A stretch of DNA of 64,000 nt. Origin: Podarcis vaucheri. Lineage: Eukaryota. The notes beneath the pieces were generated by a model. That model worked only from the letters and a program-made list of their open reading frames with translations. It was not told where the DNA came from and ran no database searches. How positions within the stretch are numbered: the first letter of the stretch is position 1; each line of letters starts with the position of its first letter. Below are positions 2,985 through 58,076 of the stretch, one piece after another. The translations under genes and the position numbers were made by a program. The stretch lies in assembly GCA_965113315.1 (NCBI GenBank), contig OZ220374.1. One strand, given 5' to 3'.

Positions 2985-3520
2985 ACGCCCGCCTCACCCT
3001 ACCTCAGGGCGCCTCAGCGTCCGCCTCCTCCAACCGCTGCGCCGCCGCCGCGGTCACCCTGTGGCGGCGCGCTCGCCGATTGGCTTCCGCGCCGCGTTCG
3101 TCAGATGGGCAGAGATCGGCCCAGCTCCCGCCGGCGGAGGATAGGCCACGCCCCTTCGCCCGGCTTCTCTCGGCGTCCGAGTCCCCGTCGGTCCTGGTCC
3201 TGCGTGCCTCAGAGCCGGGAGGATGATGGCGGCGCCGAGCTTGCTGGAAGCGGGCTACTCCCTGCTGGAGAAGGCGGCGGCTGGCAGCCCGCTCTCCCTC
3301 TTGCTGGCCGCCTCCGCTTTCGCCCTCGGCTTGGGATATTTGCTGCAGCTCGGCTCCCGGCAGAAGATGCCCAGCGCCGGCCAGGTGGGTCGCGGCGGGG
3401 GCGGCATTGGGTGGGCAGAACTTGGACCCGTGCCGGTATTTGGGGGTCGCACCAAACCTGGGCAGCGGAAGGGGAAGCGGCGGGTCCTTGCAGCAGGTGC
3501 ATCCAAGCACAGGCAGCCGC
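2985..3520 (+). promoter_or_regulatory. CpG island / CYP51A1 promoter with SRE-like, CCAAT, CRE-half and GC-box motifs
   Basis: Sharp GC/CpG-rich block over exon 1. CTCACCCTAC 2993-3002, GTCACCCTGT 3053-3062, ATTGG 3079-3083, CGTCA 3099-3103, CCACGCCCC about 3146-3154. Confidence 0.75.
3223..3384 (+). CDS. CYP51A1: CYP51A1 exon 1 (membrane anchor)
   Basis: [11 protein letters not shown]...[19 protein letters not shown]...SAGQ|gtgggt. Confidence 0.9.
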
Positions 3521-12500: not shown

Positions 12501-13357
12501 CGATGGGTTGGATTTGAATGTACATTTGATAAGTGTTTTCTTGCTTTTTTTAGACAGTTGCTGGGTATACAATTCCACCTGGTCATCAAGTTTGTGTATC
12601 TCCCACTGTCAATCAGAGACTTAAGGATTGTTGGACAGAAAATGTAGATTTCAAACCAGAGCGTTATCTCCAAGATAACCCCGCAGCTAAAGAGAAGTTT
12701 GCGTATGTGCCGTTTGGTGCTGGTAAGTTGGTTGTAGTAGATGTTCTCTAAATAAGGGATACAGTCATTGCCACCTTCAGTCATTTAAAAACAAACAAGC
12801 AAAAGACTTTAATTAAAAAAAATAATTTGCGGCATGGACACCTCTGTCGGTCCTCATGTTTTGAAAAGTAGAGTATCAGTGTCTCTAGCTAATCTCTTGA
12901 AAATGCAGGCACTTGGCTAATAAACAGTAACTGAGGATCCAACAGGTTAAAGGCCTATCCCACAGCAACCCGTTTTTGTTCCCATGAAGCAGACCTTGTT
13001 ACCCCCGCATGGGTGGGTTTTGTTCGCAGGCATCCAGTTTTGTGGCATCCTGTGGCCCTTCAGCTCCCCCCCCCCGAATTTAGGATTGCTCCCTTATACA
13101 GATCTAATTTCTTGGTGGTACAAGAATGTTTGCAAACGTAAAATAAAGACCCTTTTAATTTTCTTTTAGGTCGTCATCGTTGTATTGGAGAGAACTTTGC
13201 TTATATTCAAATTAAGACAATTTGGTCAACGCTTCTGCGCTTGTATGAATTTGATTTGGTGGACGGTTATTTCCCTACCATAAATTATACAACTATGATC
13301 CATACAGCCACTAACCCTATCATTAGATACAAAAGGAGATCAAACAGCACAACATAG
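3223..13357 (+). CDS. CYP51A1: Lanosterol 14-alpha demethylase (CYP51A1), 10 exons, 502 aa
   Basis: Exons 3223-3384, 3893-3991, 5143-5319, 6327-6453, 7571-7745, 9149-9268, 9673-9868, 10764-10859, 12554-12722 and 13170-13357 sum to 1509 nt. All junctions GT-AG and in phase. Motifs [19 protein letters not shown] (I-helix), ETLR (K-helix), PERY, FGAGRHRCIG (heme Cys). Confidence 0.98.
3893..3991 (+). CDS. CYP51A1: CYP51A1 exon 2
   Basis: [33 protein letters not shown]; ag/gtgagt. Confidence 0.96.
5143..5319 (+). CDS. CYP51A1: CYP51A1 exon 3
   Basis: [19 protein letters not shown]...VAYDVPNP. Confidence 0.96.
5350..5609. mobile_element. Tc1/mariner (Tigger/pogo-like) MITE
   Basis: TA|CAGTGGTACCTC...GAGGTATGACTG|TA inverted termini with TA target site. 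Confidence 0.8.
5848..5983. mobile_element. hAT-type palindromic MITE
   Basis: CAAGCATAG...CTATGCCTG termini; perfect 8-bp TSD GTTTAACT at 5840-5847 and 5984-5991. Confidence 0.85.
6327..6453 (+). CDS. CYP51A1: CYP51A1 exon 4
   Basis: [19 protein letters not shown]...WGESGEK; gtaagt donor. Confidence 0.96.
7571..7745 (+). CDS. CYP51A1: CYP51A1 exon 5
   Basis: [23 protein letters not shown]...LPLPSFR. Confidence 0.96.
8399..8641. mobile_element. Tc1/mariner MITE
   Basis: TA|CAGTGGTACCTCGGGTTAC...GTAACCCGAGGTACCAC; internal CTTCAGGTTA sub-repeats. Confidence 0.85.
8688..8936. mobile_element. hAT non-autonomous element
   Basis: CAGGGGTCAGCAAACT...AGTTTGCCTACCCATG; 8-bp TSD ccttagcc/cattagcc. 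Confidence 0.8.
9149..9268 (+). CDS. CYP51A1: CYP51A1 exon 6
   Basis: [22 protein letters not shown]...LLDVTYK. Confidence 0.95.
9673..9868 (+). CDS. CYP51A1: CYP51A1 exon 7 (I-helix)
   Basis: [31 protein letters not shown]...LSYDQ. Confidence 0.96.
10376..10509 (+). mobile_element. tRNA-Lys(CTT)-derived SINE with CR1-type tail
   Basis: Head ctagctcagtcagtaaaagcatgtgactcttaatcttagggtcatgggttcaag resembles tRNA-Lys; tail ggtcccttccaac...attctatgattcta is CR1-like. Confidence 0.7.
10764..10859 (+). CDS. CYP51A1: CYP51A1 exon 8 (K-helix ExxR)
   Basis: [32 protein letters not shown]. Confidence 0.96.
12554..12722 (+). CDS. CYP51A1: CYP51A1 exon 9
   Basis: [23 protein letters not shown]...KFAYVPFGA(G). 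Confidence 0.96.
13170..13357 (+). CDS. CYP51A1: CYP51A1 exon 10 coding part (heme Cys, stop)
   Basis: [20 protein letters not shown]...[12 protein letters not shown]; TAG 13355-13357. Confidence 0.96.
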
Positions 13358-18000: not shown

Positions 18001-21000
18001 TTTGTGAATATAAACATAGATAAACTAAATAATAAGTTGTACAATTAGTGACATTCAGGAGAGAAAAATGAATCATGTTTTCTTAGGTACTGCAAGTAGA
18101 ACACATGCCATAGAATCTCTTGATTTGTTTTCTGTCCATGAAGCGTAACTTTGCAGTGACACAGGGGCTCAGATTTAAATGGCGTGGACGCCTACTTTCA
18201 TCATTTAATTTATTTACACATGCAGGTCATGTATTTAGTTCACTTATACAAAACAAATGTCCTGTATCATACCTTGAAATTGCGATTAATACTCTAACTG
18301 CTGAGCGGAACCGAGTGAAACTCTTTGAACGACGGGTGATCCCCTCTAGGTCTGTGTAGGAAGGCTGCCCACCCATTCTGGCAAGGAGGGATAAGGTGGC
18401 ATCTTCACACTCCTGAAACCCGCCCAATAAAAGCAGCAAATATTTCTTCTGGTATATGAGCGCCTTCCGAAAGCTCTCTGCTCTCAGATATCTGCCATAA
18501 ATTCTCTAGAAAGGAAAGGAAATAAAATAACACTCTTTGTCATGTCTGATGTCCGAATGGAGGTCATTCTTTCCACCTATTCTAGGCCAGGAATGGGGAA
18601 TTTTGTTGGACTACAACTCTCACCAGCCCCAGCCAGTATGGCCAATGGATGGAGATGATAGGAGTTGCGGTGCAGCAATCTCTGGAGGGCCACAGCTTCC
18701 CCAGCCCTGTCCACTACCCATGCGGCTCCTGAAGTTCGTATTGCAGTTTGAGGAGCTGCAACTTCAACCTTAACTGGCAAAGCGAAAAGGCTCCACTTGA
18801 ATGCAGGATCTTGTTCCTCTGAACTTCAACCAAGTGCAGAATGGCCTTTTCCTTTCATTTATCCAAAGGAAAAATCAGAAGAAAAACAAAAGAAAGGAAA
18901 GGAAAGGAAAGGAAAAAGAATTTGGATGTGATATCCCGCTTTATCACTACCCTAAGGAGTCTCAAAGCAGCTAACATTCTCCTTTCCCTTCCTCCCCCAC
19001 AACAAACACTCTGTGAGGTGAGTGGGGCTGAGAGACTTCAGAGAAGTGTGACTGACCCAAGGTCACCCAGCAGCTGCATGTGGAGGAGCGGAGACGCGAA
19101 CCCGGTTCACCAGATTACGAGACTACCGCTCTTGCAGACTAGGATGTGACAGGCCAGGGCTCAAATCTCCACTCAGCCTTGAATCGAGTTTGGGCCAGTC
19201 ACAGTCTGTCAGCCTAAGCTACCACACAGAGTTGTTACAAGGATAAAATGGTGAGTGAGAGAATGATGAAGGCCACCTTGAGCTTCGTGGAGAAAAGGTG
19301 GGATATAAATGCAATAATAAGCATTTTGCCTCAGATTAATGCAGGAAGAAAAAATCAAGTAATATTCTTAACAATAGAACAAAATGTCCAAACAGCAGGT
19401 GATGAAAGGCCTCTTACCTTTAAAGCAGCATTTTCTGAATCTGACCCCAGTTCTCTCAGAAAAGCCTCATTCCTTAATTCTGCCCTCAGTTTGGCCAGCT
19501 CTGCTTCGGCCTGCTTCAGGGACTGTTGCAGAATCCATTTCTCTTTGTTCCAGAGCTCTCTTTCAGAAGCAAGGAGAGTATCAACACTTCCTCCATTGTT
19601 CAGCGACAGTCTGAAAGCCTTGTGAAATTTCAGAAGAAATGCAGAATTAAGTCCACCGGTACCAACAAGGCAAACACCAATTTCAGGGGAGGCATCTTCC
19701 TCAGGTCTAGGAGGGGAGTAAAAGTTTAAATCTCCCCTCCAGCAAAAGACAGTAGCTCGGTGGTACAGCATCTTGCTTTGTGTGCAAAAAAAGTCTGAAG
19801 CTCAATCCCCCAGCATCTCCAGGTAGGGCAGGGAAAGAACCCTGCCTGAAATCCTGAAGGTATTGCCAGTAGGTATAGACAAAATTCATCAGCTATACAG
19901 ACCAACTGTCTGACTCAGTATAGGGCAAGCTTCCTAAACCTGCTAGGATCCTAAACATTGTTTACCAGCCAGCTAATGAGTGCAGAGAGAATGCAAGAGA
20001 GCTCCTCAGCTGGTTGCTGTCAGTTGGTGCCCATTGAAACACAGCCAAGCAAGAGGTGGGTGGGGGAGAGAAAGCAGCCATTGTAAATGTTGATCCGGTT
20101 CATTTCCATGGACCTTGTTGCCCGAGACAAGGCAGAAGGGCTTCAAATCCTATAGGGGACTCTTAATGATACAGTCTGAGAAAGATAGGAGTATGGCCAG
20201 CTGCCAGACAGCAGAATATAGGAGACACAGGAGAAGTGGGAGAAGGTAAGGGCAGGGATGGTGAAGTTATTCAGTCCCAGCCATTGAGGGAACAAAGCTG
20301 GGTGCTATGCCCAGAGGTCAGGTAGCAACGGAAGGGAGTGACCTAGAGGAAGAGCTAACAGGCATCCCTGTGATGAGATGGGTCTTGATTCCAGTACGGC
20401 AGGGTTTCCCATACTTGGGTCTCCATCTGTTGTTGGACTACAACTCCCATCATCCCTAGCTAGCAGGTCAGGGATGATGGGAACTGTAGTCCAAAAACAG
20501 CTGGAGACCCAAATTTGGGAAAACATGTGTTTAAAAATGTGCAAGTTAACAGAAATGCACTCAGCTTAAGAGATGTATGACTCAGTCCATCTGGACGAGT
20601 ACTTAAGGTGAACTGAAGGACTATTTATATTCAAATTAGGTAGAAACATACCGAGTCTCCACACGGCCCTCTCTGCTGGTATCGTCTAAGCTCCTCCTCC
20701 AGTTTCATGACTGCATTTCTCAAATTGTTCTTCTCCTCGCTCAGTCTGCTGACAAACCCAGTTAATTCAGCATTCTGTTTTAGTAATCTTTCAGTCAATG
20801 AAGCAGAGGATGGCAAGTCTGAACTTATCTAGATAGAAAAACAAGTAGTTTTCAAGTAGATCAGTTTGGCTCCCAAGAATTTTTTTTAAAATGCTACAAG
20901 ATCAGGAAGAGTACCCACAATTGTTCTTTAAATCAACTTTGGAAAAACTTTCATGAAACAATGTAACAAAATAAAACAGATAAATATACCTATTTTATTA

Positions 21001-31177: not shown

Positions 31178-34100
31178 TTATTATTTATATCCCACCCATG
31201 GAGAACTAATCAGTATTCCTCAACAAGGGCCTCCAGATGGTGAGTCCTACCATAAACCCTTTCAAAGCCCTCCCAGACCCCTTTCCTTATACCCTCCCTC
31301 TCCTCTTATCCCTATTAATCCCCAGGGAACCCTAAATAAGGCAGCTGTTTCCTATGAAGAGTGCTAGTTTCAGAAGCACCATATGTGCTCACTTCTAATA
31401 GCCACGAGTGCCACAAAAAGAACATCATCATCTGCACCATCTATGGAAGCCCGCAAGAAAAAGGTTGGACATTTTCCCCACATATCACTGGATTCCCCTG
31501 GACTGATGAGAAATTATGGAAATTTATCTGATAGTGATAGAACTCCATGAGGCTATGACTGGTTCAACACCCTTGTAGGCATCCTGCAAACCCTCTTATT
31601 GAAAATGGAAGTGTTGTGACATTATTCATAATACACACCTCTTTATCTCTCAGGGCTTCTATGACATCCTTCAAAGTGTTACATTCCTCCGTTAATTCCT
31701 GCACTACAATAAACTGCTCTCTTTTTAGTGCATCCGATTCTGAGATATGCCGGGTCTCCATATCCATTATTTCAGCAGCATGTAGCTCCTGCATTTTATC
31801 AATTTTTTCACTGAATTCTTTGATGATTTCTGCAACTTCCTCTGCAGAACACCCATTCTGTAAATCAATCTGAATTTCCTCATTTTTGACAAGGAGCTGT
31901 GAAGTTTGGTTGCAGCTGTTGATATGCAGGGCTTTGTCAGTCTGACATGATGCATCACTTCTATTGATACAAACACCCTCTGACTTTTCAATGCACTTTT
32001 CCTTTCTCACATAATTTTCAATTTTCTCTTCTGCCTCAGCCAGTTTATCTTTGGTTTGCCTTAGATCTTCTTCGAGACGAAGTAAACTTGTTTCTTTTAC
32101 CTAGAAATGGATCAGAATTACATGTGTTTCAAATGCCTTTTTCAAAGCATTGAGTTTAAAACATCTGAAGTGGTTAGGGCCTTGTCAAAAAGTCAGATTT
32201 TTATTGTTGGCAGCCAGTGGCCATTACAATGTAACTCACAAAAACAAACAAGGGAACATTTATGTGGAAAAACATCGTGTATATTGATATAAGAATAAGA
32301 ATACCACTCTTCAACCAAACAGTCTTTTATGAAAATATTACAAGCAATCATTAGCTCAAAAATGAAATAATTATGGCAATGTTCAGTTCTTACCATTAAC
32401 TGCTCATTAAGTTTTTCTGCCTTTTCTCTGTAACTATTAAGCTCTTCCTTAGCAGCAACAGACTCAGCTCTGATTCTCTCTAGTTCAGGATCATCAGACA
32501 GTATATTTCCTTCTTTGTTTTCACTCAATTCTTTAGCCACCTGCACAGCAATGTATAAAAAACCCCAATTTTGTGACTATAAGCCCATGAATGTTTTGCT
32601 ATTTGCTACTACAACCCTGATATCATGATTCCTCATGACATAAGCTGCGCAACAAAGCTTTAAGTAGTTCATTAGGTTGCTAACCAATGAAATCAGGACC
32701 ATGCAGCTAAGATGTGGTGTCTCTGAAGCGCTCTGGATCATTAAAGAAGTCCACTGAAGCATTTGAAAAGGCCACGGAGTACTACAATACAGATATTGGC
32801 CTAGTTAGGTGTGCGCATATTCAGCAGGTCGTGGTGAGTCATAGCTTTCCACAGGCTTCCTCAACCTCGGCCCTCCAGATGTTTTTGAGACTACAATTCC
32901 CAGCATCCCTGACCACTGGTCCTGCTAGCTAGGGATCATGGGAGTTGTAGGCCAAAAACATCTGGAGGGCCGAGGTTGAGGAAGCCTGACTTACCACATC
33001 ATGCATACCAGGCCAGTATTACCTTTAGCACTTAGAGCACAAGAGTATGGCATTAAATGGAATAACCTAAAGCTACGATTCCAAGAGTCCATGCCTAGCA
33101 AAGTGCTTCTTTGAGTGTGCTACAACTTGTCTGAAGCTACTTTCATTGAATCAGCAAGAGAAAATGTCTACTCATTTTCAGCAGCGGTTATTTGAAGGGC
33201 ACAAGCAGTAGCAGTTGGTGGGCAGAGCAGGGTGGTGTTGCATATCTTGCGTCCCAATGCTGGGGTCACTGCCCGCTACTGGCGGGCAGCGGGGAAGCTG
33301 GCATACAGCAGGTGATGCAGCACCGTCAGTCTGGAACTCCCACCACTGGCCTGCAATGCACAAACCTCTCCACTGCCTTGTTCCCTCCCCATCTCAGAAA
33401 CTAGCAAGTGACCCAGGTACTGGGAAGCCAGGTAAGCAGCTCATTCCCACTCCAACCTGCAGATTGCTACTGGCTACAGTGGCTGGGGCACAAAAGGAAA
33501 CCAAAGTATTTCCAGCAGGCGGGTAGAGGTTCACACATGGTCTTTGGAACCCATCCTCAGAAACAGTAATACTTAACTGGATGACCTTTTAGAATTTACT
33601 GAAGTATATTGATGGGAGGGTGCTTCTTTCTACCTTGCACAGTTATGCAGCTAGTATTATTATAATCTGCTAGAACTGGCAACAGTTCATGATAAGCAAT
33701 GCGAAAAGATACAAGTTTCCTTACAACTGAGAAATCTGTTCCCCATTATGCAAGGAGACTTGATGAACTATTGCAGAAACATTTTTGGTCATGTATATGG
33801 TGTTTTCCAACATCACCTCACCCATATTTTGGGAAAAGTCACCTACTCCATAAAAGAAGAATGAGCAGCCATTTTCGGGCCACACAAACCTGAGCAGTAA
33901 GCGTTTTTTCTTGCTTAGAACCCTTTGCTTTCTCCTTTTTGTGCTTTTCTTCTACTTCTGCTAGTAGCTGGTGAAGTTCAGCAAGTCTCTCTTCCTTCTC
34001 CTTTGCTTCCTTCTGTGCAATTTCCACCTTTGCTTTTTCTAGCTCCAGGCTGCTCTGTGCACCTGCCAGCTGGCTCTCCATTTCCAAAAGTTTGTTGGAT

Positions 34101-37100
34101 AATGAAGATAATACAGAACCTGCATCTTCTCCAGGCGTGCTGTTTCCTTTCTCCGCTGAAATAGTTTTTATAGCTTCTAAGGCGTCTCCTGAAACCACCT
34201 GCATTTCTTGGAGAAGTTTACTTTGCTCCAGAACTGCTTTCAGCTGAGCTTGACTCACAAGGGCTGCAGCAACTTTCTGCTCAAGCGTTTCTTCCAGCTC
34301 TGTTATTTTCTGTTTAAGCACCACTGACTCAGCCTGGGCTTGCTCTTTTAAAGCCGTGAGCTGATTGCAATGTTGCTTTAGCTCTGAATCCTTTTCCTCC
34401 AAAGCCTCTTGAAGCTGCTGCAACTTTGTGCTGGAAGAATCTTTGGCATTTTCCTCCTCATAGCCAAGAGGGGTTTCATTTTTTAACATTTTAGTTTTCT
34501 TCTGACTTTCAGTTTTCAGTTGGCTTGATCCTCGTATTTCTGCCACACCACTGTCCATCTGCATGTTTCTGTGTATTCCTTCCTTTTTCTCATGTTCTTT
34601 CTTAAATGCATCTACTTCTTTCTCCAACTTGCCCATCTTTAATTTTGTTTCCTCAAGTTCATTCTTCATGACAGAGACCTCTACATCTTTATTTTCCACT
34701 TGTTTCACCAAAGCTTCCTTTTCTGCCAACACGACATCAAGCTGGTATTTTAAGTTATCTGCGTCTTCCTGAGTCAAAGAAAAGTCCAGAGGTACTTTGT
34801 GCTCAATATTTGCCAACTCCTGCTGGAGTTTTTCGATAACGTCATTTAGCTGCTCGAGTTCCTGTTCGCTGTTTTGCTTCACACGTTCCTGATCGCTCTT
34901 TAAATATTCTATTTGGGCCTCCAGTTCCCTTATGTGCTCATTTTTGCCCTCAATCACCTAGGTGGTCAAAGAAATAAAAAATATTTAATTATCCAAAAGA
35001 GGTAGACAGTTCTGGAATTCATTCCAACAACTTGCTTACATAAACAACAACTCATATTATCAATATATGATTGATTGCATAGTGTCAATCAATCCACCTT
35101 CGCATGGAAGTTTTAAAAACCAAATGTTTCTGACAGTTATTTAAGAATTTTGGTTTGTTCAAACATACACTTCATAGTATTTTCCACTTAAATGTTTCAA
35201 GTTCTGGAAAATATAAAATTCACTGTGTTCAAAGGGACTATATGCAGGACCAAGTCGCTTCATAGTGCTTTTTGATCAATTATGTCTGTAGATATACAAG
35301 CAGCTTATAGAGTAATTTGTGTAACTCTAATTCAGCTGATATTTTCTCTGCCAGAACTATTCCTATATCTCAGCTCCTCAGCTTCATTCTAGTTACTGAA
35401 CTCCCATTTGCCATTTGCAAAAAAGAACTCTCCAGAGTGCTGGTTGTTTCAACAAAACCACCGTTATATCCTTAGTCACTAGAACTTAACATTCTTTTCC
35501 ACAGTCCAAACATACAACAAAAAAATGAGTAAGTAAGGATCCTGATCGGTCTCCTAAGTTACAGAATCATAGGGTAATTTCCACATCTTCCTACACGGAT
35601 GAAGTTGCTATATTATCTAAGTACCGTCATACCTTGGAAGTCAAACGGAATCCATTCCAGAAGTCCGTTCGACATCCAAAACGTATGGAAACCAAAGCAC
35701 AGCTTCTGATTGGCTGCAGGAAGCTCCTGCAGCCAATCGGAAGCCGTGGAAGCCCCGTAGGACATTTGGCTTCCAAAAATAGTTCACAAACCAGAACAGT
35801 CACTTCCAGGTTTGCGGCGTTCGGGAGCGAAAACGTTTGAGAACTAAGCTGTTCAAAAACCAAGGTACGACTATATATGGTTGGGGAAAAGAGAAACTCA
35901 TACAATCAACACCTCATATCTTTTTTTCTTTTTTTTAAAAGTGGGATACATTTAACAACGTAAGAAAAGCCATGCTGGGTTAGGTCAAAAGCCCACCTAG
36001 TCCAGCATCTTGTTCTCTCAGTGGCCAACCAGATGCCTATGGGAAGCTCATAGCACTCTCTCCACTTGTGATTCCTGGCATGCATTCAGATGCATACTGC
36101 CTCTAATAGTGAGAGAGAACATAGCCACTGTGGCTAGAAGCCATTTGACTGAGAGAAAAAAAGAATTGGGGACTATTCAAAAGCTGTGAAATCATGACTT
36201 TACAAAACAGATGTAAGAGATTTTGTAAGGGGGCGGGGAAGGACACTATGAAGTAGCAGAAGAAATAAAAATAATAAAGCATATTATTTCACTTGTGTAT
36301 TATTATGAAGAAGGCAAAATGATCCAAGAGATAAGTTGCCAACCATACAAGGACTGTTCCAGAATTTTATCTAAAAGAAATCTATTAAGAAAGAGGGGAA
36401 GGTGTAAAGACCAAGTAAGAAGATTCAAATTATTCAGACAAATAATTTAGAGGAAGATAGAAGTAGCTAAATGGGGAAGGTGTGGTTTAGAAACCTCAGG
36501 AAGAGTTTCAATGCTAGGAATTCAAAGTCAGAAACAGAAAGAGGAGTATAAATAGAATGAGTTCAAAAGACCAATGTAGAATAGCTGAAATATTGGTTTT
36601 GAATAGATGACAAGTGATTGATTTATAACAACTTCAAGAATAGAGTTTTCTTTTTGCTTTCTCAGCAAAGGATGCAGAAAGAATTTATTAGCCACCACAA
36701 AAATCTTAAAATCAAAAGAAATACAATAAACAACAACTACTAGATGGAACCAGAAAACTCAGAAGCTCTAGATATTTTACATCTTAATGATACAAGATAA
36801 AGTCACAGGATTTATGGGAAGCACTACAAATAATTGTCTTCCTCTTTCCAAAAGATATAGCAATTCCTGAAAAGACATATAAATAAAGCTAGTGAATTCT
36901 CTCTATTGCTAATGCAAAGGAGGCTGTGTGGAGGACTTGCTAGGTAACATAACTTGAAGAACAAGTAACATATCTATATGAGTAGCAGCGGCAGTGATTT
37001 TAGGCATGTAGTCAAGAAAGGAACAGAAATATGGGATCCTGAAATTGAAAGGGGGGGGGAGGAAGATCCAGAACAAGTTTCTCTTTTGAAACCTGAAAAT

Positions 37101-48094: not shown

Positions 48095-51000
48095 TATTTT
48101 ACAACAGATATGCTTTTTGATGGTAGTGGTGGGGTGGGAGTGTTGATGCTAGGTACATCAAACAAGTTGGGCCTGCCTTTGAATCCCAATCTTTTTCTTT
48201 ACTTTCTGAAAGCCTATAAACTTGCTCTTTAAGTAACAGTGGCACCAGGATCTACCAGCCCATGTCAGCCAAACTGATATACCAATGTATAGCTTATGCA
48301 TCTGGTTACTTGTCCTAGGATGATATTACCATATGAAAAGAAAACTGGACACGTCATAGGACGTGTGGTGAAATGGGTGTGTTTTATTAACAAAACCATT
48401 CAATACTATTCAACATAACTCAGGTGGTCAGAAAGGCCCAACAGAGACTTAGTTGGTCAGAAAGGCCCAACAGAGACTCCATTTCCTCAGGGTCTTGCAA
48501 AAGAATAATGTTAAACAACAACTGATCAACTCCTTTTACTGGTCCACAATAGAAAGTGTCCTTTCATATTGTATCACAGTCTGGTATGCTGGCCTGACAG
48601 CCGCGGACAGAAAGTCTCTACAGAGGGTGGTGAATACAACACATGATATCATGGGCTGTCCCTTAAGTCCGCTAGATGACATCGCAAGGGATCATTGCCT
48701 TAGGAGAACGAGAAAAAATCTCAGGGATGACTCACACCCTGGCCATCACCTCTTTAATCTTCTCCCCTCGGGCAGGAGATATAGAAGTATAAACAGCCAT
48801 ACCAACAGGCTAAAAAATAGCTTCTATCCGTGGGCTGTTTGGCTGTTGAACAGAAAATAACATCGCAAAATTGACTTGCGAGGTGGTGTGTTGTTCGATA
48901 AAAGATTGAGTATTTGAGGGGGGGCAAGCTCAATTAATTTAATTGTACACAGGTTGTACAATGACAATAAAGGTATTATTATTATTACTATGTGAAGCAG
49001 GATTGTGTGCATGTGCACATACTTTAGAGCTGCAGACACTACTTAACATGTAAAGAGGGTTTTAAATCTTTATGACAGGACAGAAGGCCATAATTTGGAC
49101 AATTTTTTGTATGAATGCACATTCATCATTGGAATTCTACCAAACGAGAAAGTTTGCAGTAGCTTAAATCTGCCTTTTTTAAATAAAAAATAAAAAAATT
49201 CCTTCCAGTAGCACCTTAAAGACCAACTAAGTTAGTTCTTGGTATGAGCTTTCGTGTGCATGCACACTTCTTCAGATTTTTTAAATCAAGGTGACAAAAC
49301 CAGAATCTAAAGGAGTTGGCTGCTGTAATGTCAGAGACTGTAAATACTGCTCCCAAGAAGCAGTCATGAATCAGATCTTTTTTTAAAAAATATGGCACTC
49401 AATTTCATGAGAACTGCCCAAGGGCACATTAGTAAATCACAAATCCTCATTAGAAAGTAGTATTTGTCTTAAGAAAAAATGCAATTCCACAGATTTCTTT
49501 TGACAAATTTTGCAAGCTTGATGAATACTGTTTTGTTGTTAATAAATAGTCTGAAGTAAAGTTATTTCTAGCACAATCCTATCAACCTTTACTCAGAAGC
49601 AAGTCCTACTGAGTTCAATTAATCTTATTTTCTAGTAAATATGTTTAGGATTGCAGCTTTAACACACAGTTTGTTTGTTTGTTTGTTTGGGCTGCTGAAA
49701 GCAGCCAATAAGCAACACAAGAATACCTTTAAAGAACAATTCTAAGCATCAATTTTTTTAAGAAGCAAAGCACAATTATCCAAAAATTAAAATAATTTCT
49801 TTGGCTTTTAGTACAATGTAAGTAATCTATTTTTGTATCAGTCAGAATTTATTTATTAAATGCCAATGTACAGCCTATTAAAGGACAGGTTCATATGCTG
49901 ATTTCTGTGAATGGTTCAGTGCTGCCAAATTCTGGCTCTTTGATTTATCAACTAAATCATTGACCCATGACTCAAACACCTGTTGATTAATTCAAAGGCT
50001 CATTCAAAATCTAGGATCATATGCATTTCAAAGGAGAGCTGGCTGAAAAGTTGAAATGCTGTAAAAGAGAGGCCATCCACCAGCTATAACATGACTTTCC
50101 TTGTATTTAACTTTTTTATAATTAGTTAACAAAAAAGTTGTTTAAGTTGAGCCCTAGTTTTTGAATCTTGCCTTTATGCCTTGCTCAGTAAACAGAACTT
50201 TTCACAAATAATCTGTGTCTTACCCTGCACTAATGTCTATTGAAAGAACGAGTACAATGGTGATAGGTTTCTATGGCAACAGACATCCTGTTATACAGGT
50301 TTAACAGATTCTGAATCATACACAAAATGTGATATTATGAGTAAAGAGCTCATTACTCCTACTGGTGGCATGCAAATTGAGAATATTCACAATGATGAAA
50401 GCATCGTCTATAAAATACGCCAGAGTTGAACCAACCATGAAAACCCTCATTTTGCAATTTTCTCATCAATAAATGCTCAAGACACTGCTGCTGTCCATTA
50501 CAGAACAAATGAATGATAATGATGGTCTTAGGATATAACCTTTAATGTAGTTTAACTTGAAGCACAGGTTGAAAAAAAAGAGGTTAGATTATACACTGCA
50601 GAAGATTATGAAAATCCTCTCCCCCTTATTTCCCCCTAACCTTGGCACAAGATACTCATTTTTTATTTTAGTCTTCATTTCTGCTCTCTGTCTGTCTGTT
50701 TCGCATTGTGGCTGCTTTCCTTTCTCTCAGAGAGGTATGAATTAATTTTGTTTTCTATTTGCTTGCACCTTCCTTTTCTCTACTGCTGAAAAAGAAGGAT
50801 AATTTATCCATAACTACCTGAAAATTTGACATGGATTCAAGAGATCACTAAATGAGTTGCTCTATGATTCTGGCAATTTTTGGGGCAAAGAATGCAAATA
50901 CTGCAAACACTGACATAACGAAGAGAAAGGATTTACTATGCCTTAAACATTTAAAGCCTTATACAGCAGATGAATCATTACTTACTCTCTGCTTTGCTAA

Positions 51001-53695
51001 GCTCCAAAGCCAACTGCTCTCTAGCTTTAACCTCTCCATCGAGTCGCTCTTGCAATTCCTCCTGGCATCTGAGCAATTCAGTGGCTTCTTGTTCCTGTTT
51101 AAAGGACTCTCGCATCAATTCTGTCTGTGTAACTTTAGCATGTTCAAGCTGCGTGATAAGAGAATGAAAAAGGTTAAAATTTGATGGTTTAAAAACCAGG
51201 TCTTATACTGGAAACTTGAAATTGTTGTGGAACGATAAATAATCTGGAAAGGATCGGGCCCTTTCATTCATTTCTACAGACTTCTAAATTAGAGGTTTAT
51301 TGGCCTTACACAATATGGTCAGTAAGATAAGTAAATACCTGCACACTGCAGTATAATGAATCAGTGTCACATGACCATATCCGTGTCGAAGTGCCGGAAC
51401 TTGACACTTCCTAGCTTACGTCAACTTATGAGAGGCTCATTTTAATGTTCATTACAAACTTTCCAGAACGTAATGGAATCCTCAGCACATACTACACATA
51501 TTAGCTTTTGCTACAAATTTTATACGACAGTTCCTAATTAGGATGGTTGAAAAGGAATGTGGAGCAACGGATTTCATGTTGCAAATAATAATTCTACTTC
51601 ATAAGAAACTTTGGTTTTCCACCATGCTCAATTAATACAACAAGACATACTACAAGGTAATATTTACTGTGCAACTCCCTCAGATCAAAGGTTAGAGAAC
51701 CACAATGAAGCAGAAACAACCCTATAGGCAAGGTTCATTAGGCTCTAAAGCTCTTAAACACATATGAATTAGTACTTGAAGGGAGATGTTGTTTCCCATT
51801 GTATATTTTCCATCCATTGTTTAATTTGTGGAAATGTCACCTACTTAACTGACATAATTTTAAAAAACAAACATTGAAACAGTTCATTTGCCCCCCACCA
51901 AAAGCAATACATCTCAAAAACCAATAGCTCTGAGTCAAAAATCCTGCCTGTCTCTTTTGAATAAATCTTTGAGAAATGATGAAGAACCACCTGCTGTAAT
52001 TATCAGACCAGAATCACAGTAGAGACTTGTGGGAAACAATATTTTTCAAGCCATGTGCTTAAGGTAAGTAAGAATATAGCATGACTTTACTTAGAATTTG
52101 TAAAAAAATAAAATTCTTAGATCAGTTTAACAAGTGAAAAAGTTCAGAGTCTAGCTGTTAAGGGCAGGTAAGGCTGCTGACATTTCACGTGCTACTCAAA
52201 TTACAAAATGACAAAACGCATATTTGTTTAACTGCAGGGAAGGAAAGAACCCACACCCATGTTTTTATAAGTATGGTGAATGTGTTCACATATTATGTGT
52301 CTTGTAATACTATATTCCTCATAGAGCATGGCTTTATAGGGGGAAAAAGCTCTTCTATTTTTATCAACTGTTTTAGCGTTAACAAAGCTAAGGTGGTTGT
52401 CGCTGGTTAACAATGAAGACATGGGCCAGCAAGCAAAATGTCAAGCAATCCATGCAAACAGAGTTCTAATGCTAAAGCTTCCTGCAGCAGTATATACCTA
52501 GGGTTAATTTTTTTCTCATCCAGCAATGTGGCTTGGCTGTGTGGAAGGGCTCTCAAAATCCAAATAACTGCTGTCTGGATGATGACAGCTGCACTCATGG
52601 AGAACTTCCAGTTTCCTCCACCACCATCCCAGAGAAGGGGAGAAATGTTATCTAGGTATCCCAGCCCCATTACTAAATCTAAAGGCAGCAAAACTATACC
52701 AATATATATAGAGAGACAGAAGTACACCTCACAGTACAGGTCTCAAGTCACCTAAGTCTGCGCACATATCATACATTTAAAGCACAGGAGTCTCCCCCCA
52801 CAAAATCCAGGAAACTGTAGTTGATGGGGGGGGGGGAGACACGTGTTTGAAATGTGCTTCAAATGCATAGTATGCACAAAGCCTCAGTCAGCACATTGTG
52901 CCAAAACACAAAATAATATTCCTAAAGATTATTTAAATTGTACTAAAGATTTCTCTATGCTTTGATTACATGGCAGATAACTATACTTAGCATTATCAAA
53001 AATTCACAGGTGCATTTTACAGAATATACTACTGCATCTTAGTTTAAGTATGCATTTGATATATCTTATTAGAAAGGGACATTAGTATTTCCATTACTTT
53101 CTGTTTCTCCACTCTATACTTAAGCATGGCCAAATTAAACTATTCACTACTAAAGCAGCACATGCAACACATTGCCCAATGTGGGCATTTGATCCTCATT
53201 TTGTCATGTGCCTCCTATTATCTATCATAACAATGTTGCATTCAGCTTTGGGTGCAAACAGAACCATACATTCATTGGAAACGGTCCTTATATTATTACA
53301 GTATGCTTTTTGCTACTTTGCAAATATATTTTACTGAAAGGCATGGAGGGGGGGAAATCAAATAAATAAAATCAAATAAACAAAGAGAATAAATGTGATT
53401 GTTAAATAATAGCTAGATATGCTACATGGCTCAGATACACAGCTGTCATAACTTAGATTTAAGTGGCAAGCACTAAAATAACAGATACCTACAAATATGT
53501 TACATCTGCGCCTGCTTTATAATGTCAATACTGGCACTGCATGCTGAATTCAATTCTACTGTAGTGTTAATAATTTAAGAAAAAAGTTTCATTAGCTTTG
53601 TTTACAAAATAAAAAACTGCTTTAGATACAAAAATATTATCAAGTACAGTATATACTGTAGTTTAAAACTTTCCCTTTACCATTTCTGCCAGCAT

Positions 53696-53733
<38 letters not shown>

Positions 53734-56700
53734 TACAGCAAGATTAAAATTCCTTCAGCTTCTTTAATACTTACTGAATAAGGGGGTGTAGGCAAAGAAA
53801 TTTTTGAAACAACTCTTACTCTATGCTCATTTTTCCTGCGCCTAAAATGAAAAATTGAAGTATTGACAACTACAGAGTTATTTTCATCCAACTCTTCGGT
53901 GAAAGGAAAAGGATATGGTAAAGGCACACGAGATTCAACTTCATATGTATCTTCTTCCTCGCTTTTTTCTGACTTCAAGCCACTGAATAGATTTGATGCC
54001 CAATATGTACGGTAGGAATCCATTCGAGAATAACGTTGCTGCCTTCGCTCATCAGATAGGGCTATTTGCCTTAGCTATGAAAGGTTTCAATATACTGACA
54101 AAAAAATGCAGAGAAGTTCACCAGTTGTCTGACTGCTGCAGAGAGCCAGGAACTATCAGTTCACATCCGGATAAGTAACCCGCAAGTAAGGAGAAGCCCA
54201 AGTAAATATCAACTTGAGAAGAAAAGAAAGTGTCAACATTTGCAGACTTCACTGAACTACGACTTTCCCCCTCAGAACCAAACTCGAAAAGGTATTTTAA
54301 ACAAAAAGAATTAGTAATGTGAGGCAGGCATTCATTGAGGGAACAAGGTATCTTCATTATTAGGCCATGTAACGACAAGCAACAGGCAGTTAATCAATCC
54401 ATTACAGGAAAAAAAAAATTTCAGCAGTTGTCAATTGAAAAAACAAAACAAAACACCTGCTACAGTGAGGTCAAAAATACAAAAAGTGGCACACTTCTTT
54501 GGCTTTGATTACTTTCTTGAAAGAATTCTCCTGAAGTTAGATAAAGCTTCACCGTGTAAAGTGAAAGCCTCTCTCTCTCTCAATGCCTCTGTTGAGGAAG
54601 AGGTCAGGACAATGGGAGTGGCTTAATTTCTTTACTGCAGGTACACAAGCTGATGGAATTTGAATTAGCACACCCACAGTAAACCTTGCCCGACAAGATT
54701 CAAAATCCAAGTCAGAGCAGAGAAGCTGTATTCGTAAGGGAATAAAACAATAGCTTCAAGACTAAAAGACTATTTTCAATGCTTTGTAAAAAAGAACATT
54801 TCTAAAATACAGTTGCATTTCCAGATCTTTAATGTTGACAGCCTGAAAAGCACTCCTAGCAAGGTTTCTCTTTCTATTAGGATCAATGTGCAAGTCCATG
54901 AATTAGATGATAGGTAAATTCATACTGTTTGTAGATTTTTTTGGCACAAAGATCACCTTATCATCACAACATAGTTCTTTGGAAGTTTGAGGGCGATGAG
55001 GGAAGATAGAAAGGAGAATAAGATTTTGATTACATCCTTTGGAGAAACCAGTTGTAAAATGATGCACTTATTGTCCATTAGAAAATAAGTCTTTCATTTA
55101 ACTTGCTGGGCATTTTCTGCTTGTTCTGTTGCAAGAGAGTCCTGAGAAACTAAGTTGACAAAATTAAACTTGATAGACAGATATGAAACAGAATTGTTGT
55201 TGTTGTTTAGTCGTGACCGACTCTTTGTGACCCCATGGACCAGAGCACGCCAGGCACCCATGTCTTCCACTGCCTCCCACAGTTTGGTCGAACTCATGCT
55301 GGTAGCTTCGACAACACTGTCCAACCATCTCGTCCTCTGTCGTCCCCTTCTCCTTGTGCCCTCAATCTTTCCCAGCATCAGGGTCTTTTCCAGGGAGTCT
55401 TCTCTTCTCATGAGGTGGCCAAAGTATTGGAGCCTCAGCTTCACGATCTGTCCTTCCAGTGAGCACTCAGGGCTGATTTCCTTCAGAATGGATAGGTTTG
55501 ATCTTCTTGCAGTGCACGGGACTCTCAAGAGTCTCCTCCAGCACCATAATTCAAAAGCATCAATTCTTTGGCGATCAGCCTTCTTTATGGTCCAGCTCTC
55601 GCTTCCATACATCACTACTGAGAAAACCATAGCTTTAACTATACGGACCTTTGTTGGCAAGGTGATGTCTCTGCTTTTTAAGATGCTGTCTAGGTTTGTC
55701 ATTGAAATAGAATAGTATATTTCAAATTCAAAGATGTATCTGATCCATTCACCTGTTTCTAAGAGGGATGGAAGAGCTCTCATTTGAGCACTGAGATTCG
55801 TTTCAAATGCATTTAACAGACTGAGGCTATAATACTATGATGCAGGTTCCAAGTTCAAATGTGGCACCATTTTGAGGCATGCAAGAAATGTGATTTCTTC
55901 GTTGAGCACTAAAACTATGCATGCTACAATCTATTGCTTTTTCCAAAAGTCGTTCTAGGTTTCAGGTTCAAAACTGACCTATTTGATAGGGACTATTTTT
56001 GAAAGGGAAATATTCAGCACTGAAAAACTGGATTCAAACTTGGTGTGCATATTCATGGCACCATTCTAAAAGTTCCAAGTATTTGAGGAAGAGGGAGAAG
56101 AGATGGGTAAGCACCTAGGTGCAATGACTCAAAATATTGAAGAAAAATATTGAGGCGGAAAGAAGAAGAAGAAGAGTTTGGATTTGATATCCCGCTTTAT
56201 CACTACCCGAAGGAGTCTCAAAGCGGCTAACATTCTCCTTTCCCTTCCTCCCCCACAACAAACACTCTGTAAGGTGAGTGGGGCTGAGAGACTTCAAAGA
56301 AGTGTGACTGGCCCAAGGTCACCCAGCAGCTGCATGTGGAGGAGCGGAGACGCGAACCCGGTTCCCCAGATTGCAAGACTATTGCTCTTAACCACTACAC
56401 CACACAGATAAAAGGCTTCCAATAGGATAAGCAGGTTGAAACAATTGCAATGAAACAACGTTCATTGGAACGTTCCGGATGCAAGACCTATTCAATCCTA
56501 CGATTCACTAGTTTTTAAAATGAAGTATTTTCTTTCTAGGAAAGCCAACACTGAAAAAACTGGATTGCAAATGAAATCCTATTGCAAGTTACACTGGCAT
56601 ACACATATCTTTCTGGAAATAATAAGAATTGTATAAACACTAGTTGAAACTGGGAACAACTACACATTCCACACTTTGAGGGCACCGATGGTATAGATCT

Positions 56701-58076
56701 GAAGGAATCCAATTTACTTCCTCACGTGGAGGTATTAGGCAATGTTTGTGTGCAGCTTCCCTGTACCCAAAGAATTGGCCCTTCAATTAATGGACACACA
56801 CACCAGCCTATAAGAATTTAAATCCACAGAACGAGAAATATCTGTTCTCCCAAGGAAGGAATGATCAAAGTCATGGCAACCAAAGAAACAACTTTCAAAT
56901 AATTTGATTTAGCTTATCACAACTTTGAACTGTTTACGTCACTGTCTTAAATACATTTAAACATTTAAATGAAAGAAACCTCTGAAAACATAAGAGACTT
57001 CAAAAGATCTGAAAAACTTACCACAATCCCCGAAAAATCATATAATATTGTAGGTGTACCACCACCAGAAGGGGAGATGGAGGTGGAAAATCAATACACC
57101 TGGCTCAACAGATAAACAGGTATCAGGGCTATAGATACTTTTTAAAGAGATGCTAATGCTTACTTTTCTAAATCTATCCTACAGTACTATATACTATATA
57201 AGGATGTCATCATGCTGTGGTTTCCATGGCCAGCAACAGATGGCTCTGTGAACTACAACGTGAAGAAGGAAAAGCAGTGTTGGCAGTTGAGGATGATGGA
57301 AATAGAGATGGGGGCAGCCCACACAAGTGAGTGAACAGGCAGGTGACAGTGCAGGTGAGCAGGTGGCCCAGATGATCAACACAGGTATCAGGTAGCCTAG
57401 GCAAGCCACAGAGGAAAACACAGGGCAGCTCCCCACCAACCATTCAGCTCTGCTGCCACTGCCCACCGCCCACCAATATTGCTGTTTTAGCCTCAGCAGC
57501 ATTGCAGTAGAGAAGGAAGTAAGCAGAGGCAGGTGGGAACCCCAGGCAAGCCGCTGAGGAACAGTCGGGACAGCACAGGGGAGCTGTTGAACAACCATCC
57601 TACCACTTCGCTGCTCCTCAACTTCTGCAGCTAAGGCCAAGGCACCCATGTCAGTGTGAGTATAAGCAGAGGGTGGGAGGGGGGGGTCTAAAGGAGAAAG
57701 TGTGGTTGGGATAAGTTGTAAGGAGAAGGGGGAGAGGAGGTTGGGATGAGATGCTAAGGGAGAAGATTTTCAAAACCTATACTGTATCCAATAGTGTTTT
57801 GCAACCCGTTCCTCAATAATCTACTAAGGATATAATTAAGGAGTGCTACCTGATTGGTGGTTTCGTTTATTGTTTCCAGAAGTTTTTCAACGGCTGCCTG
57901 AAGTCGAGAACTGATATTTAAAACCAGCTCTTCATTTTTGGGGTCTACTTCCACTCCAGCAAAGCCATGCTCCGTGAGGTACTGTGAGAGTTCAAGGCCT
58001 TCATCTGTGACTTCTGACCACATGCTAGGGCCATCACCTTCTACATCGCTGCCATGATACGAAGATGGTGCCTTTT
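15032..58076 (-). CDS. AKAP9: A-kinase anchor protein 9 (AKAP450/CG-NAP), 3' portion: 29 constitutive exons, coiled coils and PACT domain; 5' part outside window
   Basis: 29 GT-AG exons totalling 6293 nt in continuous frame. Includes LNISSRLQAAVEKLLE, LEHAKVTQTELMRESF, QKVAAALVSQ, PACT (RIYGRYLRAESFRKALIYQKKYL...RFRSAVRVLIAISRMKFLVRRW) and C-terminal YDPDRALTDYINRLEALQRRL...SGIRR*. Confidence 0.97.
15228..15367 (-). CDS. AKAP9: AKAP9 exon
   Basis: YQGIHTDLSPVSLACSQLQNYDPDRALTDYINRLEALQRRLGSVQS. Confidence 0.93.
15700..15960 (-). mobile_element. Degenerate CR1 LINE 3' fragment
   Basis: gatcagatcaaaggtccaactagccagc...ccttttaaaagct, related to 35960-36150. Boundaries approximate. Confidence 0.5.
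16316..16439 (-). CDS. AKAP9: AKAP9 exon
   Basis: GNDLRPDSFPGGLELFGEHRHSSYRSRSELESLRSPLSYQHR. Confidence 0.92.
17447..17532 (-). CDS. AKAP9: AKAP9 exon (end of PACT)
   Basis: MKFLVRRWHRVTGYSLTGINRDGFSQNT. Confidence 0.93.
18273..18505 (-). CDS. AKAP9: AKAP9 exon (PACT domain)
   Basis: RIYGRYLRAESFRKALIYQKKYLLLLLGGFQECEDATL...VLIAISR. Confidence 0.95.
18588..18709. mobile_element. hAT-type palindromic MITE
   Basis: CAGGAATGGGGAA...TTCCCCAGCCCTG termini, ggactacaactc core. Confidence 0.65.
18921..19132 (-). mobile_element. Squam3-like tRNA/CORE SINE
   Basis: Nearly identical to 56176-56404; (GAAAG)n tail at about 18890-18920. Confidence 0.75.
19133..19320 (+). mobile_element. Old MIR/Ther1-like SINE
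   Basis: CORE-like gttgttacaaggataaaatgg and tail gccaccttgagc...gggatataaatgcaataataa. Confidence 0.55.
19418..19618 (-). CDS. AKAP9: AKAP9 exon
   Basis: AFRLSLNNGGSVDTLLASERELWNKEK...ENAALK. Confidence 0.9.
19745..19940 (+). mobile_element. tRNA-headed SINE with CR1-like tail (Squam2-like)
   Basis: gtagctcggtggtacagcat...ctgactcagtatagggcaagcttccta; related copy at about 25110-25320. Confidence 0.55.
20400..20527. mobile_element. hAT-type palindromic MITE
   Basis: CAGGGTTTCCC...GGGAAAACATG; long hairpin ggactacaactcccatcatccct/agggatgatgggaactgtagtcc. Confidence 0.75.
20652..20828 (-). CDS. AKAP9: AKAP9 exon
   Basis: ISSDLPSSASLTERLLKQNAELTGFVSRLSEEKNNLRN...GDS. Confidence 0.92.
21290..21401 (-). 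CDS. AKAP9: AKAP9 exon
   Basis: LPFEKADDEGFVGIQNNIEEVILQLQMLSGLPNLEAE. Confidence 0.9.
21673..21849. mobile_element. hAT non-autonomous element
   Basis: CAGGGGTGTCCAAA...TTTGGACATGCCTG; perfect 8-bp TSD ACTTATAC at 21665-21672 and 21850-21857. Confidence 0.85.
21866..22229 (-). mobile_element. Sauria SINE (POM-type), near full length
   Basis: Reverse strand reads GGGACACAGGTGACGCTGTGG...GCAGTTCGAAAGCA...GGGTCCTTTATCCTTT, matching the recalled Sauria SINE. Homologous to 27331-27509 and 62627-62777. Confidence 0.85.
22470..22682. mobile_element. Tc1/mariner MITE (one end truncated)
   Basis: Homologous to 35624-35873 (aaccaaag...cttctgattggctgca...); ends gactg|ta. Confidence 0.7.
23144..23349 (-). 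CDS. AKAP9: AKAP9 exon
   Basis: TTRDTSNERTRKWVFQQK...ANKAAQR. Confidence 0.9.
24034..24702 (-). CDS. AKAP9: AKAP9 exon (669 nt, coiled coil)
   Basis: DLKYSLENEKQKVAELSNLLELERE...CQNLNE. Confidence 0.93.
25495..25645 (-). CDS. AKAP9: AKAP9 exon
   Basis: NELKGKAAELDLLKDTMASEQKKSRELQWALEKE...EELE. Confidence 0.93.
26448..26643 (-). CDS. AKAP9: AKAP9 exon
   Basis: LLGYNMEVQMELSNIKDKA...TLKAQHKHLRDLEAIR. Confidence 0.9.
27331..27509 (+). mobile_element. Sauria SINE 3' half
   Basis: ggtaaacagtgtttccgtgcgctgctctgg...ggggtccctttaccttta. Confidence 0.8.
27554..27698 (-). CDS. AKAP9: AKAP9 exon (alternative in-frame acceptor at 27686)
   Basis: HIFQRTAVDCIQNADRRSLLMEINLLRAQL...EPKCH. Confidence 0.85.
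28432..28620 (-). CDS. AKAP9: AKAP9 exon
   Basis: FYAGSESSEGVSDWRAELLYAVQQVF...EKRLQEQ. Confidence 0.92.
29709..29900 (-). CDS. AKAP9: AKAP9 exon
   Basis: GLLRAIHREGEQIISLSE...WLEERKAFL...HRDTE. Confidence 0.92.
30440..30561 (-). CDS. AKAP9: AKAP9 exon
   Basis: SSSDWSQGAYLVPSQGSD...LPKGIK. Confidence 0.9.
30712..30769 (-). CDS. AKAP9: AKAP9 exon (58 nt)
   Basis: GIPGIAQPSSSNARDGCSS; ttttag acceptor, gtaag donor; required for frame. Confidence 0.85.
31134..31176. repeat. (AAT)n microsatellite
   Basis: About 14 AAT units. Confidence 0.95.
31639..32100 (-). CDS. AKAP9: AKAP9 exon
   Basis: VKETSLLRLEEDL...MQELHAAEIMDMETRHISE...LRDKE. Confidence 0.92.
32394..32540 (-). CDS. AKAP9: AKAP9 exon
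   Basis: VAKELSENKE...LERIRAESVAAKEELNSYREKAEKLNEQLM. Confidence 0.92.
32852..32988. mobile_element. hAT-type palindromic MITE (young)
   Basis: Near-perfect long TIR CAGGCTTCCTCAACCTCGGCCCTCCAGATGTTTTTG and its complement. Confidence 0.85.
33890..34957 (-). CDS. AKAP9: AKAP9 large exon (1068 nt; includes the PKA-RII anchoring helix region)
   Basis: VIEGKNEHIRELEAQIEYLKSDQE...LEETLEQKVAAALVSQAQL...TLTAQ. Confidence 0.94.
35624..35873. mobile_element. Tc1/mariner MITE
   Basis: TA|CCGTCATACCTTGG...CCAAGGTACGACTA|TA. Confidence 0.75.
35960..36150 (-). mobile_element. CR1 LINE 3' end fragment
   Basis: aagaaaagccatgctgggttaggtcaaaagcccacctagtccagcatc..., typical of a reversed CR1 3' end. Confidence 0.55.
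37733..37912 (-). CDS. AKAP9: AKAP9 exon
   Basis: EDMEKMGLAI...GKFVQIIQEKEQEI...ITTDNK. Confidence 0.92.
38134..38286 (-). CDS. AKAP9: AKAP9 exon
   Basis: IINLEEQLEQFREELENKNEEVQQLHMQLEIQ...ENKFFK. Confidence 0.93.
39263..39367 (-). CDS. AKAP9: AKAP9 exon
   Basis: VEERKQFGSTTIRRELPLEAQLQAEQEAVDRKEKE. Confidence 0.92.
39475..39651 (-). CDS. AKAP9: AKAP9 exon
   Basis: VEQLTNHLKEKTDKCSELLLSKEQLQRD...ADSLQK. Confidence 0.93.
41510..41629 (-). CDS. AKAP9: AKAP9 exon
   Basis: EQAIDREHERDVFQQEIVKLEHQLK...HQNRE. Confidence 0.93.
41785..41819. repeat. (CA)n microsatellite
   Basis: About 17 CA units. Confidence 0.95.
42216..42370. mobile_element. Tc1/mariner MITE
   Basis: TA|CAGTCATACCTC...AAGGTTCCACTG|TA. 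Confidence 0.7.
42757..42989 (-). CDS. AKAP9: AKAP9 exon
   Basis: LLAETEKLMREKIEVQRQAEK...LEKTKKFLD. Confidence 0.93.
44471..44509 (-). CDS. AKAP9: AKAP9 alternative 39-nt microexon
   Basis: Strong pyrimidine tract ...ctgttctcctag| and |gtgtgt donor. Symmetric phase 1, matching the flanking exons. Encodes (R)LVDAAVDAASQA(E), similar to a recalled LVDAAVDAA insert in some AKAP9 isoforms. Confidence 0.75.
46196..46408 (-). CDS. AKAP9: AKAP9 exon
   Basis: LIDGYADEKSLLEEQIQEKTD...KADAGPVEQ. Confidence 0.93.
48047..48093. repeat. (CT)n microsatellite
   Basis: About 20 CT units. Confidence 0.95.
48425..48987 (+). mobile_element. 5'-truncated Rex1/Babar-type LINE (RT C-terminal region, 3' UTR, (TAT)n tail)
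   Basis: ORF 48453-48860 KAQQRLHFLR...FYWSTIESVLSYCITVWY...DSHPGHHLFNLLPSGRRYRS...TNRLKNSFYP; ends gacaataaaggtattattattatt. Confidence 0.85.
50986..51148 (-). CDS. AKAP9: AKAP9 exon
   Basis: LEHAKVTQTELMRESFKQEQE...LALELSKAE. Confidence 0.93.
53699..53730. repeat. (CA)n microsatellite, read as (UG)n on AKAP9 pre-mRNA
   Basis: About 16 units. Confidence 0.95.
53775..54074 (-). CDS. AKAP9: Candidate alternative AKAP9 exon (internal first exon from ATG 54023, or 300-nt cassette)
   Basis: Stop-free 100 codons between ctttcatag| and |gtaagt, phase 0 at both ends, matching the flanking AKAP9 exons. Confidence 0.5.
55194..55702 (-). mobile_element. 5'-truncated BovB (RTE) LINE
   Basis: MTNLDSILKSRDITLPTKVRIVKAMVF...IDAFELWCWRRLLRVP...LEKTLMLGKIEGTRRRGRQR...VHGVTKSR; (CAA)n tail; TSD tgaaacagaat/tgaaatagaat. 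Confidence 0.92.
56176..56404 (-). mobile_element. Squam3-like tRNA/CORE SINE
   Basis: Second copy of 18921-19132, with tRNA-like head (gtggtgtagtggttaagagc on -) and (GAA)n tail. Confidence 0.8.
57850..58076 (-). CDS. AKAP9: AKAP9 exon (5'-most found in window)
   Basis: KAPSSYHGSD...MWSEVTDEGLELSQ...LNISSRLQAAVEKLLETINETTNQ. Confidence 0.93.

Follow-up and report, generated by a model that had tools for sequence, protein, structure and literature searches.

An intronic segment of AKAP9 in Podarcis vaucheri is very probably a conserved alternative first exon of the annotated short isoform

An intron of AKAP9 in Podarcis vaucheri very probably contains a conserved, spliced alternative first exon, likely served by an internal promoter. 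This exon would supply 83 N-terminal residues to the C-terminal half of the scaffold, and the resulting isoform of ~2,100 residues is predicted to be centrosomal and not Golgi-bound. By every feature testable here, the peptide is that of the annotated short AKAP9 isoform. Because the exon and the isoform are already in public annotation (human included), the discovery itself is not new. The window analyzed is a stretch of 64,000 nucleotides, and its host gene is AKAP9: the snake isoform P0047 maps to the alternative exon and to 26 downstream stretches, in order. The features of the locus are as follows.

53775..54571, minus strand: AKAP9 alternative first exon (very probable), extent covered by contigs X1 (53775-54556), X2 (53775-54571) and X3 (53775-54566)
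53775..54023, minus strand: coding part, the 83-residue isoform-specific N-terminus, conserved from teleosts to human and modelled with AlphaFold2
54024..54571, minus strand: 5' leader, about 545 nt by contig coverage, in which a sequence scan found 8 upstream ATGs
54075..54076, minus strand: in-frame AG, a potential internal acceptor for cassette use; the turtle internal acceptor aligns there, and no use of it is seen in the contigs
53769..53774, minus strand: donor GTAAGT, joined to 51148 (CT..AC joint 51148-53775 in X2 and X3)
50986..51148, minus strand: common downstream exon (LEHAK...), preceded in transcripts by either the 57850..58076 exon or the alternative first exon
57850..58076, minus strand: last exon of the N-terminal half (...TTNQ), full-length AKAP9 only; loose ends of X2 and X3 at 51151 match it
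33887..34957, minus strand: downstream exon with the second PKA-RII site (near 34276), retained in the short isoform
18272..18505, minus strand: PACT domain exon (Pfam PF10495, E 6e-24), retained in the short isoform

The original prediction described the minus strand between 53775 and 54074 as a protein-like exon of 300 nt, in phase 0 at both ends. The sequence bears this out: the stretch has no stop, is preceded by ...TCATAG and followed by GTAAGT, and its frame is continuous with that of the two neighboring exons, one of which ends at 57850 while the other starts at 51148. When the intron was block-shuffled 1000 times, 7 of the shuffles gave an open phase-0 exon of at least 300 nt. Within the stretch, an ATG at 54023 opens 83 codons up to the donor at 53775, and an in-frame stop lies just upstream of 54074. 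The 83-residue peptide has one copy in the genome (single-protein search). No homologue of this module was found elsewhere in the genome by that search, nor among non-AKAP9 named proteins in the database searches.

We looked for transcripts in seven runs presumed to be RNA and one DNA-like run, taken from 24 listed. Contigs covered the exon in three of the seven presumed-RNA runs, all three from one study of a related species, and every one of them was unbroken across 54074. Thus, the transcribed exon would be ~800 nt long and not a 300-nt cassette, and the earlier placement of its 5' boundary at 54074 does not hold. A joint from 53775 to 51148, spanning a 2,626-nt GT-AG intron, was found in two of the seven runs (X2 and X3), so the predicted donor is in use. 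The DNA-like run X19 covered the intron and did not show the joint. Both X2 and X3 also contained a second contig with the full-length junction, which joins 57850 to 51148. Contig depth at the alternative and full-length junctions was 12 versus 41.6 and 9.6 versus 18.1, a poor measure that we did not use. For run X1, whose tables were crowded by repeats, no joint was listed, and runs X5, X6, X13 and X14 had no contig over the coding part, which is not evidence of silence. Contigs drop rare forms and cannot map a start site; as these end beside a short AG repeat, a further non-coding exon may lie upstream.

The original prediction called the peptide unexplained. A first search found it in AKAP9-named records of turkey, a marsupial, the aye-aye and two fishes, and the aye-aye query returned 46 proteins of 1,100–3,500 residues and 4 longer ones (21 among cluster representatives). 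Module-bearing isoforms occur in mammals, marsupials, birds, turtles, snakes and teleosts. The peptide is therefore the already annotated N-terminus of short AKAP9 isoforms, which in amniotes are 2,080–2,142 residues long. Examples include "isoform 4" of the aye-aye (KAL2777394.1), a lemur protein of 2,122 residues (XP_069318450.1), a corn snake protein of 2,080 residues (XP_034258140.1) and a human partial record (KAI2546608.1). Like these isoforms, the P. vaucheri form has the same N-terminal peptide from the Met, the same LEHAK junction and the same PACT-bearing C-terminal half; it differs from them by sequence divergence only (83 residues instead of 82, W17K/H62R/N65K/G66E). The closest named matches to the peptide are in birds, turtles and snakes, and several snakes also have 83 residues. 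Together with the spliced contigs, the amniote isoforms vindicate one of the two readings first proposed, that of an alternative first exon with its ATG at 54023, 83 residues and an isoform of ~2,100 residues that lacks the N-terminal half.

Could the exon be used solely as a cassette in full-length AKAP9, the short database isoforms being 5'-truncated models? The module is internal in 7 of the 53 database matches of at least 1,100 residues and N-terminal in the other 46, most of these being computational gene models of related, non-independent species. Against a cassette-only exon, the contigs extend ~490 nt upstream of the AG, across in-frame stops, and protein conservation begins sharply at a shared Met. 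We consider this explanation highly improbable.

The similarity starts at the Met of ATG 54023, a residue shared by all aligned sequences that extend to its column, and 15 columns are invariant among 61 aligned sequences. The peptide is identical to the human partial record P0080 at 54 of 83 positions and to a teleost sequence at 48 of 83. For the core the counts are 42/57 (human) and 35/57 (teleost), close to those of the next constitutive exon (44/54 and 39/54), so selection on the protein is needed to account for them. The coding-type conservation that the original prediction called for is thus found, from teleosts to human and from the Met onward. Its 100-codon protein exon is shortened by the same comparison, because the first 17 codons of the 300-nt stretch show no conservation at the protein level and have a frame that differs from the turtle and bird-like linkers. 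In the related species' contigs, three of the four variant sites in the coding part are silent and every listed indel within the exon falls in the leader; X2 substitutions number 3/249 in the coding part versus 10/548 in the leader, too few to weigh.

The leader is 533–548 nt long. In-frame stops occur in it, as do 8 upstream ATGs, of which the one at 54052 opens a 25-codon reading frame that overlaps the main start out of frame. A transcript that is made but is effectively non-coding, because the eight upstream ATGs block translation, would agree with this arrangement; however, the core keeps an identity near that of the neighboring coding exon in both teleost and human, and there is little chance that this explanation is right. 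We prefer a translated first exon. CpG density is 17.6 per kb over the exon versus 7.2 and 4.8 in the flanks, a weak hint of a promoter. A consensus scan of 54500-54900 found no TATA, CCAAT or GC box. In human, the partial record P0080 is 282 residues long, begins with the module and ends mid-frame, and the table of a review lists the Ensembl transcript AKAP9-213 with 282 residues on 1,389 nt (PMC6861388 Table 3). If the two are the same, as judged by equal length alone, the human leader would be 543 nt long, near the 533–548 nt found here. The leader also contains a 79-codon upstream reading frame (54118-54357, minus strand) with no Pfam match.

The exon could also be a hybrid, used as a first exon and in addition spliced as a 300-nt cassette (57850 to 54074), in which case full-length AKAP9 would also carry the module, immediately ahead of the inhibitory region. 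An in-frame AG is available at 54075, and no stop interrupts the 51 nt between it and the ATG. Internal use is annotated in 4/4 green turtle, 10/15 leatherback and 7/9 yellow catfish isoforms, tallies made among the matches listed (15/54 and 15/19 cluster members); among the matches listed for the hawksbill, RefSeq models have the exon either first or skipped. The back-translated turtle linker aligns from exactly 54074, with a score reached by 10 of 300 shuffles, and the linkers of the turtle and of a bird-like transcript have 9 of 18 residues in common, in one frame. Thus, the acceptor may be old and weak and the exon perhaps a hybrid. However, X1, X2 and X3 run through 54074 without a break or a joint (though rare forms are lost from contigs), the P. 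vaucheri linker is frameshifted relative to that of the turtle, the linkers of the internal models of ground squirrel, carp, rohu and electric eel are mutually unrelated, and the pyrimidine tract is weak (0.57 versus 0.81 at 51148). We regard such dual use as possible but rather unlikely in this lizard. The main role of the exon here is that of a first exon. The original prediction had left the choice between cassette and first exon open and named the junctions 53775-51148 and 57850-54074 as the ones to look for. The former was found in contigs of two runs from the related species; the latter was in none of the three covering contigs, which may drop rare forms. The spliced contigs thus favor its first-exon alternative, and its cassette is unseen in the contigs of this lineage, though annotated in sea turtles and a catfish.

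The module was modelled with AlphaFold2 from 61 sequences (mean pLDDT 77, pTM 0.54). The predicted fold consists of a low-confidence helix (residues 3–14) and three long β-strands (23–34, 50–61 and 67–76). The peptide had been described as a set of linear-motif-like segments, among them a basic RRRK. This description is weakened: for the conserved core the model gives a folded β-sheet, and RRRK lacks conservation, the usual residues in other species being H62, N65 and G66. The module has no Pfam match; its best hit among PDB sequences has an E value of 0.07, its best Foldseek hit an E value of 0.22, and its best VIA row a Z of 4.1 and an rmsd of 2.7 over 55 aligned residues. A search of the ESM Atlas with the turkey homologue gave no usable match. 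The missing clear structural neighbor neither shows a new fold nor rules out a known one. A resemblance to BMP2 (E 0.07 over 26 columns) was rejected as chance, and rows with COMMD-like and phage-coat folds (Z at most 4.1) were taken as generic β-meander matches. SRVP, considered as a putative SxIP-like motif, sits within a predicted strand, and this reading was dropped. The modelled sheet is open and three-stranded and has invariant prolines, and it most likely has a partner against which it packs. There is about an even chance that it serves as a protein-binding module in place of the targeting region that the short isoform lacks.

P. vaucheri departs from near-invariant residues of the module at five positions (W17K, H62R, N65K, G66E and L69V), and the related species' contigs have the same codons as P. 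vaucheri at all five. From sequence, these departures suggest that constraint may be relaxed or altered in this lineage.

What does the short isoform keep of the scaffold? The lemur short form consists of 82 residues joined to the sequence of the 3,910-residue form, which is unaltered from residue 1871 to its end. Published maps place the GM130-binding region at residues 159–463 and p150Glued binding in the N-terminal quarter (PMC3105543), the PKA-RII sites at 1440–1457 and 2551–2564, the inhibitory region at 1882–2182, a proposed Golgi-targeting region at 3259–3307, and PACT at 3704–3786 (bioRxiv 2024.07.02.601773). On these maps, the short isoform would have neither the first PKA site nor the regions that bind GM130 and p150Glued; it would retain the inhibitory region, the second PKA site, residues 3259–3307 and PACT. 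The module sits ~10 residues before the inhibitory region.

These maps lead us to a conditional model. An internal promoter would produce a transcript with a leader of ~545 nt, spliced from 53775 to 51148; translation from the conserved Met would give a product in which the 83 residues precede the C-terminal half of AKAP9; and loss of the GM130 region with retention of PACT would direct the product to the centrosome rather than the Golgi. The retained region 3259–3307 argues against a strictly centrosomal location. For C-terminal AKAP9 fragments, one study reports that no Golgi targeting was seen (PMC3105543). On balance, we infer that the short isoform is somewhat likely to be a PKA scaffold that is targeted by PACT, needs no GM130 and is held at a low level by its upstream ATGs.

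A pool that may correspond to the short isoform has been described under the name AKAP450cent. RPE-1 cells with a knockout of AKAP9 exon 2 are left with a minor, siRNA-sensitive, centrosome-only AKAP450 pool, which fits the C-terminal half of the protein, depends on pericentrin and is unseen by N-terminal antibodies (bioRxiv 10.1101/153304). Like AKAP450cent, the short isoform begins downstream of exon 2 and lacks the N-terminal epitopes, its common sequence starting only at 1871; it also keeps residues 1871 onward of the middle region recognized by Av/CTR453 (fragment 1708–2864, exon 29). In contrast to the short isoform, AKAP450cent was defined by antibodies and siRNA alone, and its authors proposed H7BYL6 (exons 27–50) as its source (bioRxiv 10.1101/153304). 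H7BYL6 is 1,769 residues long (PMC6861388); it would fall wholly inside the short isoform and could be a 5'-incomplete piece of it. We therefore put forward the short isoform as a candidate for the AKAP450cent pool that survives the exon-2 knockout, at somewhat less than an even chance. The Golgi-targeting region proposed at 3259–3307, which the short isoform would retain, calls for caution here as well.

Two other scaffolds offer comparisons, and neither has detected sequence in common with the module. Pericentrin S is likewise a short form of a PACT protein, the paralogue of AKAP9, that lacks an N-terminal targeting sequence and keeps PACT; unlike the AKAP9 isoform, it comes from a different gene and is enriched in heart, muscle and testis and at the nuclear envelope (PMC8397033). 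In myomegalin, the isoforms CM-MMG and EB-MMG similarly show how alternative N-termini on a coiled-coil scaffold of the centrosome and Golgi change its partners and location, whereas the gene is different, the N-termini are unrelated and the function was experimentally tested (PMC4113106, PMC13678657).

A more speculative proposal, which we think is probably not correct as a whole, treats the 83-residue sheet as a targeting domain that has so far gone undescribed and has persisted since teleosts and tetrapods diverged; it would replace the Golgi-binding half and dock on pericentrin. The isoform would then be AKAP450cent, AKAP9 knockouts in 5' exons would not be nulls, and turtles and a catfish would also splice the domain into the full-length protein. 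If the exon does start the centrosome-only pool, a second AKAP9 protein has escaped the knockouts, siRNAs and antibodies directed at the 5' half, and a variant in the coding part of the exon would be classed as intronic on the full-length transcript.

A full-text search of a collection with few subscription journals returned no paper that treats this exon, and in the literature searched the Ensembl and UniProt ids of AKAP9 isoforms appear only in a review table. Term searches of PMC11853192, PMC4703868 and bioRxiv 2026.10.15.759098 gave no passage on an isoform of this kind. An alternative promoter of AKAP9, not necessarily this one, is reported to be lower in basal breast tumors (PMC12575860). 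Thus, a conserved module on a well-studied scaffold apparently has a function without description in the literature searched.

The surroundings of the exon contain several other elements. A (GT)n repeat at 53691-53739 starts ~36 nt downstream of the donor; (GT)n repeats near donors can modulate splice-site use. High-copy repeat fragments lie at 55097-55834 and 56160-56405, ~600 nt upstream of the exon, and were very deep in all four runs of one contig comparison. The former has no Pfam match and, as we take it, resembles an RTE/BovB-type LINE. Inside an AKAP9 intron, an open reading frame at 48453-48857 on the plus strand matches Pfam ALKBH8_N (E 7e-13) and is presumably a LINE fragment. At ~3000-13350 on the plus strand, a cytochrome P450 gene (PF00067), which we assume from synteny to be CYP51A1, stands tail to tail with AKAP9.
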